From Pyrinomonadaceae bacterium (GTDB lineage Bacteria; Acidobacteriota; Blastocatellia; Pyrinomonadales; Pyrinomonadaceae), in contig DASQMC010000079.1 in assembly GCA_035645695.1 (NCBI GenBank), positions 3,402 to 67,401 of the forward strand: a stretch of 64,000 nucleotides of DNA, in the 5' to 3' direction. Below the pieces are notes generated by a model. It saw only the letters and a program-made list of their open reading frames with translations, was not told the origin of the DNA and ran no database searches. The stretch's first letter is position 1, and each line of letters begins with the position of its first letter. Shown piece after piece: positions 17,641 through 62,355 of this stretch. Both the position numbers and the translations under genes were made by a program.

Positions 17641-17734
17641 GAAGAATTGATTCATTGATTCATTGATTCATTGTTTCATTGTTTCAATATTTCTATTTCT
17701 TTATTGAATCAATGAACCGATGGATCAATTCTTC
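17641..17734. repeat. AT-rich hairpin whose arms are tandem TTCATTGA octamers
   Basis: gaagaattgattcattgattcattgattca (17641-17670) is the reverse complement of tgaatcaatgaaccgatggatcaattcttc (17705-17734) with 3 mismatches in 30. The loop holds further tttcattg copies. It lies between the glycosyltransferase stop and the kinase start. Confidence 0.8.
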
Positions 17735-17779
17735 CCTTCTCCGCCACCCATTCAATAACCGAGTGATGCTTAGAGTTGT

Positions 17780-19153
17780 TCAACCTCGAAACTTGTGCGA
17801 GACGTGTGAAGCGTGGCCGTGCAGGCGCGATTCGGCCTGCAAGTGCTGGACGTAGGAATGCTCCGTGCCGTAGAGCTTGTAGCCGCGCTCGCCGAGAAAA
17901 CGGCTCCAACGAATGTCGTAGCCGGGCGGGATGCGGCGCTTGATCTCGTCCCAGTTGGCGACGATCTCCTGCAAGGGGCGGCGCGGAAAGAGGACGCATT
18001 GCGTGCCGTAAAATTTGTGCGGGTCGATGACGGTCGAGCCGTATTCGTTGCCGGGCAGGTAGAGCGTCAGGAGACCCGTGTCGGGGTTGATGCAGAGCGA
18101 GCGCAGTTTTTCGTTGAAGCGTTTCGAGAAGATGATGTCGTCTTCGATGAACAGAACGTGGTCGCCCTCGCGCGTCTCTTCGAGGACGCGCTGGAAGGCG
18201 AAGTGGACGGCCTCCTGCACCGAGTCGTAAGTGGATAGCCCCTCCTCGCGCGCGTGGACGTAGACGGCGGCGGGCGCGAGCGCGGCGACGAGCGAAAGAT
18301 ATTTGCCCGACAGTTTCGGCGTGTGGCTGGTGTCGATGACGATGACGGGCGGCCGCAAGCCCGCGCTCACCGTGCGAAACGAGGCGACGAACTGTTCCAT
18401 CGATCCGGCGTTGCGGTCGCAGCTAAGTATCAGGGGAACGATGCGCTCGTCCGCCGAAGTGACGCGCGCCCACCAGTCCGCGCCGTACTTTTCCGCGAGC
18501 ACCGCGTTCATCTCCGCGCTTGCGCGGTTGACGTAATCCGCATAATCCGTGATCGACTTGTGCTCTTTGTGCGTGATGCGCGCGCGGTTCGTCAACACGT
18601 TCCGGAGTCCCGCCTCGCGCACGCGGTAGCCGTAATCGTAATCAACGCCCCAACCGTAGGTCAGCCGCAAGTCCCAGAAACCGAGGCGGGCGATTGTCGC
18701 GGCTTTGACGAGCGGGGCGGTGGCTTCGAGATAGGGGACGAATTGCGCCTCGCACGCGGCCTGCTCCATGAACTTGTGCGGCGAGTTGTGCTGCGGCGCG
18801 ATCTGCGCGTGGGCGTCGGACGCGAACAAGACTTCGCAGAGATTAGCGAGCACGTCGTTGCCATACTCGAAGCCCACGTCGGAGTTGAGAAACCAGTAGG
18901 CGTCGTAAGCGTCTTCGGCCGAAGCGATGAGATAGCCCTCGTGCATGCCGCGCGTAAAGCCGAGATTGTGCGGGAGCGCGTGCGTGGTCGAGGCGGGCGG
19001 CGCGTCCGAACCGTTATCCACGACATAGACTTTTTTGTTCGTGTAGCGGAGATCGTTTCTCAGGTAAGCCGCCAGCGCGTCGGTCAGCGCGCCGGTATTG
19101 AAGTTCAAGACGATGATCGCCACTTTCGGCGGCGTGCGTATCTCTTCGCTCAT
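17780..19153 (-). CDS. Glycosyltransferase, N-terminal GT2 (GT-A) domain plus a second GT-A-like domain
   Basis: KVAIIVLNFNTGALT...VYVVDNGSDAP is a typical GT2 start. The C-terminal half has a VLFIEDDIIF (DxD-like) motif. ATG start at 19153. Confidence 0.75.
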   Translation of the reverse strand: MSEEIRTPPKVAIIVLNFNTGALTDALAAYLRNDLRYTNKKVYVVDNGSDAPPASTTHALPHNLGFTRGMHEGYLIASAEDAYDAYWFLNSDVGFEYGNDVLANLCEVLFASDAHAQIAPQHNSPHKFMEQAACEAQFVPYLEATAPLVKAATIARLGFWDLRLTYGWGVDYDYGYRVREAGLRNVLTNRARITHKEHKSITDYADYVNRASAEMNAVLAEKYGADWWARVTSADERIVPLILSCDRNAGSMEQFVASFRTVSAGLRPPVIVIDTSHTPKLSGKYLSLVAALAPAAVYVHAREEGLSTYDSVQEAVHFAFQRVLEETREGDHVLFIEDDIIFSKRFNEKLRSLCINPDTGLLTLYLPGNEYGSTVIDPHKFYGTQCVLFPRRPLQEIVANWDEIKRRIPPGYDIRWSRFLGERGYKLYGTEHSYVQHLQAESRLHGHASHVSHKFRG

Positions 19154-19191
19154 GCTGCGCGTCCTCTCTCGCGACGGATTCTCAAAGGGCG

Positions 19192-61243: not shown

Positions 61244-61562
61244 GTTTTTTTCTCTTGCAACATCGCACGGTTGTGCGCGTTCTGATTTCAGCAGTTAGGG
61301 TGAAACGATTCACTCTAACGACCGTGGCGCGGGGTTGTCAAGCAAGCGTTCGGCGGCGCAACCCTCCCGCTCCGGCAGACTTTATTGACCGTCGGCGGGG
61401 TGCGTGCTACGCTTCGCGCCCGCATCCGCGAGCGATTATGTGGCAAGCGAAAACAGGCGATATATTTTGGGAACATGACGCAGGGGCGTGGTGTCTAAAG
61501 ATACGTATGCACGGCGAGCGGCAGTCGCCGCATGAGTCGCCGGTTCGCGCTGGAGGACGTTT

Positions 61563-62225
61563 GTGAGCTTCGGAGAGCCAATCGCCCTCCGCGGGCAAGC
61601 CGAATTGGAGCATCCCGCCACTGTGGCGGATTCGGCCGAGGCGCGTCCGAGCGCGGAGATACAGTTCATTGAAAGATTACGCGCGGGCGAATCGGCAGCT
61701 TTCGACCGGCTCGTGGCCGAGCGTTCGCCCGAAATTTACGGCCTGCTCTACCGCCTGACCGAGGACCCCGAAGAGGCGCGCGACCTGACACAGGAGACTT
61801 TCCTGCAAGCCTTTCGCAGCATCGCGCATTTTCGCGGCGACTCGGATTTGCGCACGTGGCTCTATCGCATCGCCGTCAATCAGGCGCGCAACCGCTGGCG
61901 CTGGTGGCGGCGCAGGCGGCGGAACGTCACCGTCTCGCTTGACGCGACCGACGAGATGCACGAGCAATCGCTCGGCGCGCGCCTCGTAGACGAAGGAGCG
62001 GACGACCCCGAAGCGCGCACGCTCGCGCACGAACGCGAAGAAATCTTACTCGCAGCCGTTCGCACCCTCGCACGCCCTTATCGCGAAGCCGTCGTCCTGC
62101 GTGATGTCGAGGGCTTGAGCTACGAGGAGGTCGCCGTCGCGCTCGACATCAGCGTCGGCACGGTTAAGTCGAGGCTCTCGCGCGGCCGCACGGAGTTGCG
62201 CCGCAAGTTGGAAGGCTCTTTGTGA
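61563..62225 (+). CDS. ECF-type RNA polymerase sigma-70 factor
   Basis: Region 2 reads [42 protein letters not shown]. Region 4 reads [44 protein letters not shown]. The GTG start is uncertain. Confidence 0.88.
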   Translation: [220 protein letters not shown]

Positions 62226-62226
62226 A

Positions 62227-62355
62227 ATAGCCGTCAGCCATTAGCCGTCAGCTTTCAGCAAAAGACGGTTGAGACGGTTTACATGCAAGGGTTGACACGT
62301 TACGGCATTTAGATTTGCCTTCCGCTGAAAGCTGACCGCTGATAGCTGACGGCTA
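62227..62355. repeat. Imperfect 32-bp-arm hairpin built from AGCCGTCAGC-type repeats
   Basis: tagccgtcagccattagccgtcagctttcagc (62228-62259) faces gctgaaagctgaccgctgatagctgacggcta (62324-62355). There are a few mismatches and a 64-nt loop. It starts 2 nt after the sigma-factor stop. Confidence 0.8.

Follow-up and report, generated by a model that had tools for sequence, protein, structure and literature searches.

The stretch of DNA analysed here, hereafter the window, comprises 64,000 nt of a Pyrinomonadaceae (Acidobacteriota) assembly (GCA_035645695.1, contig DASQMC010000079.1, positions 3,402 to 67,401), and its intergenic spaces hold a set of long inverted repeats, most of which have arms built from tandem 7-nt units. 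Nearly all genes of the window lie on the minus strand. The region from 27 to 57 kb is a contractile injection system (CIS) operon encoding Pvc16_N, two sheaths, three tube proteins, a gpD-like hub protein and an AAA ATPase. Ahead of the operon lies the gene of a BTAD/SARP regulator (57649-58605), which adjoins one of the elements (57489). Three others follow non-CIS genes, whose products are a protein that weakly matches glycosyltransferases (17641), a TPR protein (60340) and an ECF sigma factor (62228). By sheath sequence the nearest genomes are also Pyrinomonadaceae (86-91% sheath identity), and the window is contained in the JGI contig Ga0193590_1000030.

A previous reading of this DNA, made from the sequence alone, had listed seven intergenic hairpins with a shared architecture. 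All seven are inverted repeats located where it had placed them, and six of them have periodic arms; the element at 57489 does not. The unit length had been put at 7-10 nt, which we correct to a period of 7 at 26953, 48997, 53234, 60340 and 62228 and of 8 at 17641, while a claimed 10-mer, AGCCGTCAGC, really consists of AGCCGTC and AGCCATT heptamers. It had also been said that the units differ between loci, and there are indeed many kinds, but the elements at 26953 and 53234 are homologous over their arms and part of the loop. We read arm periodicity with Tandem Repeats Finder (TRF) and a detector of our own; a trial detector that demanded equal-period arrays on both arms caught two of the seven window elements and was replaced.

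Six of the elements were folded as RNA, giving z scores of -5.2 to -17.4 against dinucleotide shuffles, none of which equalled them. The remaining one, the 193-nt element at 48997, was folded within its gap without a shuffle control (dG -69.9 kcal/mol). Across the window there are four strict periodic-arm hairpins, whereas 40 local dinucleotide shuffles averaged 0.1. The possibility that the elements are assembly artefacts, which the sequence-only reading had itself raised, can be discarded because identical copies, including those of the 53234 element, are present in independent assemblies from JGI (L088), ENA (L210) and Logan (L086 and L212; L numbers are our own labels for loci). Coordinates and sites are collected in Table 1.

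Table 1. Hairpins and hairpin remnants of the window, with their sites relative to neighbouring genes (z, RNA folding against dinucleotide shuffles).
Position	Strand	Feature	Site	Score or basis
17641..17734	-	hairpin, 30-bp arms, 8-nt units ATTGATTC/ATTGTTTC	45 nt past stop of 457-aa protein (17780-19153, weak glycosyltransferase match); 91 nt before histidine-kinase start	z = -5.75
26953..27031	-	(GAACGAT)n hairpin, stem 25-33 bp	occupies 97-nt gap from AAA ATPase stop (27044) to start of 1146-aa gene (26946)	z = -10.1
48997..49189	-	(GTRATGA)n; on mRNA strand, 5' arm ~13 units, 3' arm ~4 units	7 nt past tube2 stop (49197)	
53234..53313	-	(GAACGAT/GAACGCG)n hairpin	overlaps sheath1 stop codon (53312-53314); ends 15 nt before tube1 start; GAGGAG ribosome-binding site free	z = -5.15
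57421..57446	-	decayed 3' arm (mRNA sense) of ancestral (GCGGAAT)n hairpin	behind BTAD regulator	TRF array 57407-57440
57489..57589	-	near-perfect 42-45 bp palindrome, not heptamer-periodic		z = -17.4
57636-57644	-	5' remnant CGCATTCGG of ancestral (GCGGAAT)n hairpin		
60335..60420	-	(AGAGGTC)n hairpin, one arm (left) degenerate	overlaps TPR gene stop (60419); ends 16 nt before YdjM-family gene start	z = -5.97
62228..62355	+	(AGCCGTC/AGCCATT/AGCTTTC)n hairpin, arms 32-37 bp	2 nt past ECF sigma-factor stop (62225)	z = -8.87
62630..62704	+	degenerate hairpin, AGAGGYC-like arms	directly upstream of anti-sigma gene start	fold

Distribution and gene context of the hairpins

The neighbourhoods of sheath homologues, amounting to 1.4 Mb from 80 species, were scanned for hairpins with periodic arms. 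Their density is 6.3-7.7 per 100 kb in the window, the Pyrinomonadaceae loci and the unclassified Acidobacteria loci, compared with 0.7 per 100 kb in other taxa, and they make up about 45% of all long hairpins in the Pyrinomonadaceae loci. Arrays of period 7 reach 13.8 per 100 kb in the DNA of Pyrinomonadaceae and their relatives, of which 0.58 Mb was covered, and 1.2 per 100 kb in other taxa, a 12-fold difference. An inverted partner lies within 260 nt of 68 of the 80 period-7 arrays (85%), where about 1% would be expected by chance; in other taxa this holds for 1 of 10 arrays. The elements are therefore best described as a lineage-wide class of extragenic palindromes, about 60-200 nt in length, in Pyrinomonadaceae and allied Acidobacteriota. 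Our literature search found no description of such elements in Acidobacteria.

The period is 7 in 52 of 54 metagenome cases and in five of the seven window elements. We obtained 91 period-7 hairpins, with a median stem of 26 bp and a median loop of 23 nt, and these are built from 47 distinct consensus units. The units are AT-rich, with an arm GC content of 0.45 on contigs of 0.62, and GGG or GGGG runs are nearly absent from them, so that they lack the G-tracts of G-quadruplex formers. Stop triplets are found in 72 of the 91 units, where 49% is expected; with the selected GAACGAT family set aside, the count is 45 of 64. This is a modest excess among non-independent units that we do not use as evidence.

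The GAACGAT family extends well beyond the window, where the element at 26953 is homologous both to that at 53234 and to dozens of metagenome copies. A scan of metagenomes with a family-specific pattern, which by design covers this one family, returned at least 120 matches. Roughly 25-33% of these loci hold true (GAACGAT)n-type hairpins, on contigs of 55-73% GC, and among the matches listed the strict detector called 22 of 80 loci and 31 of 120. The metagenome contigs with GAACGAT hairpins carry additional heptamer hairpins of other units. On four unrelated metagenome contigs (L095, L121, L144 and L157), a common GC-rich inner hairpin, GGCGTGGYCACTC..GAGTGRCCACGCC, is nested between the GAACGAT arms, and it constitutes a second dispersed family inside the first.

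Gene context was counted in 1.27 Mb. The genes flanking periodic hairpins are co-oriented in 54 cases, convergent in 16 and divergent in one, and divergent gaps constitute 26% of the intergenic length in the acidobacterial sample. This positional bias, for which the sequence-only reading had proposed a survey, is real. Periodic hairpins typically begin close behind the upstream stop codon (median 6 nt, with 44 of 54 between -12 and +22 nt), whereas the median for non-periodic hairpins is 38 nt. The anchoring persists when the next gene is hundreds of nucleotides away, and where operon genes are tightly packed about 8-30 nt separate the end of the hairpin from the following start, leaving the ribosome-binding site free. 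There is no fixed arm orientation, the purine-rich arm coming first in only about 60% of cases.

Protein-coding genes are not the only neighbours of these elements. In a tRNA array on L154, about nine spacers of roughly 100 nt each contain a heptamer hairpin, while the remaining spacers are 5-20 nt long and empty, and the elements therefore follow RNA genes too, behind which they are presumably read through. This locus (L154 1-8175, from Ga0070686_100003932) carries 23 tRNA genes on one strand within 8 kb, open reading frames of 205 and 392 aa, and hairpins of five unit families; the array may be of a mobile-element or phage type. The earlier proposal that the hairpins are placed in the CIS operon to set subunit stoichiometry is thus not borne out, as the class is genome- and lineage-wide and is found after glycosyltransferase, sigma-factor, regulator and tRNA genes.

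Turnover and copying of the elements

The junction between the sheath and tube genes can be followed across many loci. In non-acidobacterial loci with an adjacent tube gene it measures 10-52 nt and is hairpin-free, except in L053. It is also empty, at 14-40 nt, in 11 Pyrinomonadaceae or allied acidobacterial loci, and in about 17 loci it measures 80-180 nt and contains a hairpin. Empty and filled junctions have common flanks: L019 reads TAA GGAGATTTTAAGGAGGAAAT atg, and L016 reads TAA GGAGATTTTC, the hairpin, then AATAAAAGGAGAAATT atg. The large gaps of the CIS operon thus exist because elements were inserted, not the reverse, and the conspicuous gaps are lineage-specific insertions. Four of the hairpins had been said to occupy the only large gaps of the operon, which overlooks a 112-nt gap between tube1 and sheath2 (52654-52765) with ordinary GC-rich structure, as well as gaps of 65-85 nt at 33928, 38118, 43407 and 56897. 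The 112-nt gap folds into a two-hairpin structure of 65% GC, with a similar shape in L001-L005 and L010 and a z score of only -2.3. The exceptional L053 (4786-7300) is labelled Caldilineales and is probably a misbinned contig, because its GAATGCG hairpin and junction flanks are of the Pyrinomonadaceae type.

Among filled junctions the hairpins themselves are replaced. Where tube1 is 100% identical in protein sequence to that of the window, strains nevertheless have unrelated elements at this site: the window has GAACGAT, L081-85 have GTGACAA plus GATGAGY, L087 has a GTCAGTT/GTCCGTA hairpin and L089 a further variant. Remnants of GAACGAT arms flank a newer hairpin in L001 and L087, and in L007 a CAGTTTT hairpin is nested in a TGATGAA hairpin. 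A comparable history can be read behind the regulator, where a (GCGGAAT)n hairpin is intact 7-16 nt past the stop codon in L002, L003, L004 and L005, and where the window, by comparison with these loci, keeps just remnants of it around the 57489 palindrome; L004 and L010 have other nested hairpins at this position. Each arm of the 57489 palindrome consists of two copies of about 20 nt that differ by a 3-nt indel, and BLAST against 1.9 Mb of loci found no further copies of it.

The hairpin between tube2 and tube3, at 48997 in the window, is absent in the close relatives L002 and L004. Strains with identical tube2 proteins have about 13 or about 7 units in one arm, with the other arm unchanged, so that repeat number is polymorphic between strains, as the sequence-only reading had thought worth comparing. 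AGAGGTY hairpins orthologous to the 60340 element are present in L002, L003, L004 and L081/82, and L010 has an AGAGGTC-family hairpin of unconfirmed position. At the 62228 site, L002, L003 and L004 have orthologous hairpins and L005 has one of a different unit; pairing is kept across species among the orthologues, with eight compensatory pair changes among four sequences. In L072 (36-1333), the sheath is 84% identical to that of the window, the tube protein only 67%, and the flanks are those of the distant clade, a pattern that suggests recombination inside the operon.

Several observations show that whole elements are copied. On L154, the hairpins at 1896-1989 and 4839-4932 are about 90% identical, including the loop, and homology through arms and loop also connects non-orthologous copies on the same contig in L172, L166 and L010, as well as 26953 and 53234 in the window. 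Unit families likewise recur at unrelated sites: TTCATTGA at window position 17641 and in the sheath/tube gap of L001, and GTCAGTT/GTCCGTA behind a sigma gene in L005 and in the sheath/tube gap of L087. The degenerate hairpin at 62630-62704 has a loop (GAATCAGTTTT..ACTGAC) resembling that of the 60340 element and is a possible eighth member of the class; its membership is weak, because it has no significant BLAST match to the other elements in the 1.9 Mb of loci.

Origin and possible effects

We believe it probable that the elements are dispersed palindromes of a REP/MITE-like kind with heptamer-repeat arms, which are remodelled by slippage, anchored to stop codons, tolerated in operons and endowed with the generic effects of a stem-loop. 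The comparisons above show that elements are inserted either inside an older hairpin or in the narrow gap that separates a stop codon, or the 3' end of a tRNA, from the next ribosome-binding site. They also show that whole elements, arms and loop together, are copied between unrelated sites of one genome, that arms gain or lose 7-nt units between strains, and that one orthologous site holds unrelated units, nested combinations or nothing among close relatives. Insertion in operons may be tolerated because the base of the stem would bring the stop codon close to the next start again. The elements are probably transcribed, because they are located in transcribed 3' flanks and intercistronic spacers, and each would then appear in the transcript as a stem-loop of 20-45 bp. 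Such a long stem could, in the manner of REP and BIME sequences, hinder 3' exonucleases in a generic way and serve as a substrate for RNase III. RNase III cleaves long perfect stems. The proposed cutting draws on this established specificity and on the heptamer hairpin of Haemophilus hmw1A (PMC12721329). Any effect on the ratio of sheath to tube would be incidental rather than designed.

The complementarity of the arms could be maintained at the level of RNA or of DNA. Mismatches in the stems, read on the sense strand, comprise 36 A:C and 22 G:T (p = 0.09), with no preference for G:U; they are mostly transitions, and sense and antisense folds are equally stable. As individual RNA pairs thus show no sign of being selected, complementarity would be better explained by processes acting on DNA, namely the duplication of entire elements, slippage, and switching of the template from one arm to the other. 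The mismatch result is compatible with an RNA role, because a single mismatch in a 26-bp stem is nearly neutral. Of the role in mRNA processing or stability that had been proposed from the sequence, the part concerning RNA remains plausible, given the positional bias and the polymorphism in repeat number, but the idea that the hairpins are placed to set CIS stoichiometry is unsupported.

Two familiar identities were considered and rejected. Canonical intrinsic terminators, which have a short GC-rich stem, a loop of 3-8 nt and a U-tract behind it, do not fit, as the stems (median 26 bp, AT-rich) and loops (median 23 nt) are too long and the U-tract is missing in 46 of 54 cases, only eight having at least five T within 8 nt behind the stem; a terminator scan of the window called none of the seven elements. 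Known RNA families are likewise discounted, because no element matches an Rfam family at the gathering threshold and the sole match in the window, Acido-Lenti-1, lies outside the elements.

Several points weigh against our interpretation of the elements as dispersed palindromes. We found no transposase domain in the 30 window proteins scanned and identified no mobilising enzyme, and a set of 47 different units is hard to square with a sequence-specific transposase. The arm ends have no conserved motif of the GTAG/CGTC tag type, merely A-richness upstream and T-richness downstream, and aligned empty and filled junctions reveal no clear target-site duplication of the sort that flanks the terminal inverted repeats of MITEs, L015 having a possible AAGGAGAAATT duplication. 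The 57489 palindrome, which is single-copy and not built of heptamers, may be something different from the class. Genes in the loci were called with a crude method based on open reading frames and GC3, and some of the context assignments are wrong. The strong anchoring to stop codons could be due to selection for a function and not simply to insertions being tolerated there, and the transcription, read-through and RNase III cleavage of the elements are steps that we infer.

A rival explanation, which we consider unlikely, is that the hairpins are purely local by-products of replication: slippage would make the arrays, intra-strand template switching would make the palindromes, and the products would neither move nor function but persist where they are harmless. 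The confinement of copy-number polymorphism to one arm agrees with this, as do the predominance of transitions without a sense-strand G:U excess, the large number of different units, and the lack of a detected transposase, target-site duplication or conserved end motif. An excess of heptamers has also been ascribed to polymerase slippage (Mrazek 2007, as cited in PMC4679880 and PMC4692102). However, purely local processes do not account for same-contig, non-orthologous copies that are homologous through the loop, or for the recurrence of the TTCATTGA and GTCAGTT/GTCCGTA families at unrelated sites in related genomes. Point mutation and slippage are also insufficient where unrelated units have been exchanged at a site with a 100% identical flanking protein.

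A bolder proposal, speculative and rather improbable in our view, is that the elements are mobile or self-copying DNA defined by structure alone. They would be palindromes of less than 200 nt without conserved sequence, recognised or generated by a Pyrinomonadaceae enzyme whose footprint sets the 7-nt period, and they would home to the apices of existing hairpins and to spacers directly behind stop codons or tRNA 3' ends, replacing one another within short evolutionary times.

We regard it as distinctly improbable that the hairpins are selected intercistronic elements that adjust the proportions of CIS subunits through attenuation or through the processing or stability of the mRNA. Their long perfect stems are RNase III substrates in principle, and a heptamer-repeat hairpin cut by this enzyme controls hmw1A (PMC12721329). 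Within the operon they occupy co-oriented gaps directly behind the stops of sheath1, tube2 and the ATPase, and no member of the window's clade, or of the clade of about 62% identity, lacks a sheath/tube hairpin, despite the turnover in sequence. Yet the same junction lacks a hairpin in the non-acidobacterial loci other than L053 and in the 11 empty Pyrinomonadaceae or allied loci, and L002 and L004 do without the tube2/tube3 hairpin. Moreover, the same class stands behind unrelated genes and tRNA genes, and there is no conservation specific to the RNA strand.

Sites of SARP regulators consist of heptamers phased at 11 nt, located in the promoter beside the -10 region. That the hairpins are DNA-level arrays of binding sites for a regulator or nucleoid protein, such as the adjacent SARP/BTAD regulator, is very hard to credit: one element does lie beside the BTAD gene, the stems are equally good on both strands, and SARP-family regulators are reported to bind heptameric direct repeats (PMC5930380), but the units vary by site (47 kinds), their period is a contiguous 7 nt rather than 11-nt-phased, and they lie behind stop codons genome-wide, including on contigs without a CIS locus, while avoiding divergent, promoter-containing gaps (1 of 71), so that we rejected a SARP operator.

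Relation to known repeats

The closest precedent for the acidobacterial elements is the heptameric simple-sequence repeats of Xanthomonas (GGGAATC) and Nostoc (GGGGAYT), which occur in 2 to more than 20 tandem copies (Rehm et al. 2015, PMC4692102). In Xanthomonas, 70-75 facing pairs of arrays per genome form inverted repeats with stem-loop potential, and the repeats are enriched between aligned open reading frames and in the 50 bp next to a stop codon, and scarce between divergent frames; closely related species differ in the length and sequence of the repeat at a given intergenic site, and no function has been settled for these repeats (PMC4692102). The acidobacterial elements resemble them in their tandem 7-nt units, inverted pairs, proximity to stop codons, scarcity in divergent gaps and variation among relatives. 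They differ in that each of those genera has one G-tract unit, read as a G-quadruplex former, whereas we find at least 47 AT-rich kinds without G-tracts. They also differ in the share of arrays that lie in hairpins (85%), in the copying of whole elements including loops, and in nesting.

Other lineages have abundant heptamer repeats as well, among them the STRR heptanucleotide repeats of Calothrix (as cited in PMC4692102), the TAACTGA repeats of Beggiatoaceae and cyanobacteria (PMC4679880) and the recF/recO heptamers of Nostoc, which comprise many unit types (bioRxiv 10.1101/2022.06.06.494920). These share with our elements a lineage-specific abundance of intergenic 7-nt repeats near gene ends and proposed, unproven post-transcriptional roles. 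Stop triplets, which keep such repeats out of coding sequence, are frequent in their units as in ours. In contrast, they are mostly direct repeats (MacGregor counted 169 direct sets and one indirect) and often lie just upstream of start codons, whereas ours are nearly always inverted pairs anchored to the upstream stop codon.

The REP, BIME and REPIN sequences of Enterobacteria and Pseudomonas are small palindromes at gene 3' ends in transcribed extragenic DNA, with proposed roles in mRNA stabilisation and termination (PMC3116915, PMC3733652). Like them, the acidobacterial elements are extragenic 3'-end palindromes that form dispersed multi-copy families, are present or absent between strains and serve as targets of further insertions. 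Unlike them, they have periodic arms, many families and no tag that we could find, whereas REPs are 20-40 nt long and non-periodic, with a conserved GTAG/CGTC end tag (PMC3733652). REPs are also tied to a cognate RAYT, a Y1 transposase, for which the scanned window proteins offer no counterpart. The small dispersed repeats (SDR) of Nostoc punctiforme (Elhai et al. 2008, Genome Res 18:1484) are reported to be very small hairpin-forming repeats of 21-27 nt with family-specific conserved sequences, which seem mobile without encoding anything and insert into other repeats. The acidobacterial elements share the hairpin form, the apparent non-coding mobility and the insertion into other repeats, but not the length or the conserved sequences. 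A further parallel is the (ATCTTTC)n hairpin in the 5' untranslated region of hmw1A in Haemophilus influenzae, which is cleaved by RNase III and whose repeat number alters expression (PMC12721329). There, as predicted here, heptamers in tandem make up an arm of a long hairpin in the RNA, but hmw1A is a single phase-variable locus with one repetitive arm and is not dispersed.

Why bacteria accumulate 7-nt repeats, and to what effect, has been a question since the reports from cyanobacteria and later Xanthomonas. The Pyrinomonadaceae CIS operon offers natural experiments in this respect, with near-identical flanking proteins around a junction that is empty, or holds one hairpin, a nested pair or a varied copy number. 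Because the junction states differ between near-identical proteins, the effect on expression is directly measurable and the spread of the elements can be traced. For CIS biology, the lesson is one of caution, as conspicuous gaps in these operons are not a conserved regulatory architecture.

The window contains other repeats and structures. The convergent gap between an aminotransferase and a histidine-kinase gene (14111-14462) includes the Acido-Lenti-1 match mentioned above (RF01687, 46.9 bits, minus strand, 14191-14237). The same gap holds nested, non-periodic palindromes made of GTCCC-N4-GGGAC and GATTGA units, with a perfect 24-bp stem at 14259-14316, and these look like a separate REP-like family. 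Finally, a perfect tandem repeat of a 39-nt unit based on GCCGCCGCCCGT, present in 2.6 copies at 32012-32112, lies within the coding sequence of an 804-aa protein with an outer-membrane beta-barrel domain.

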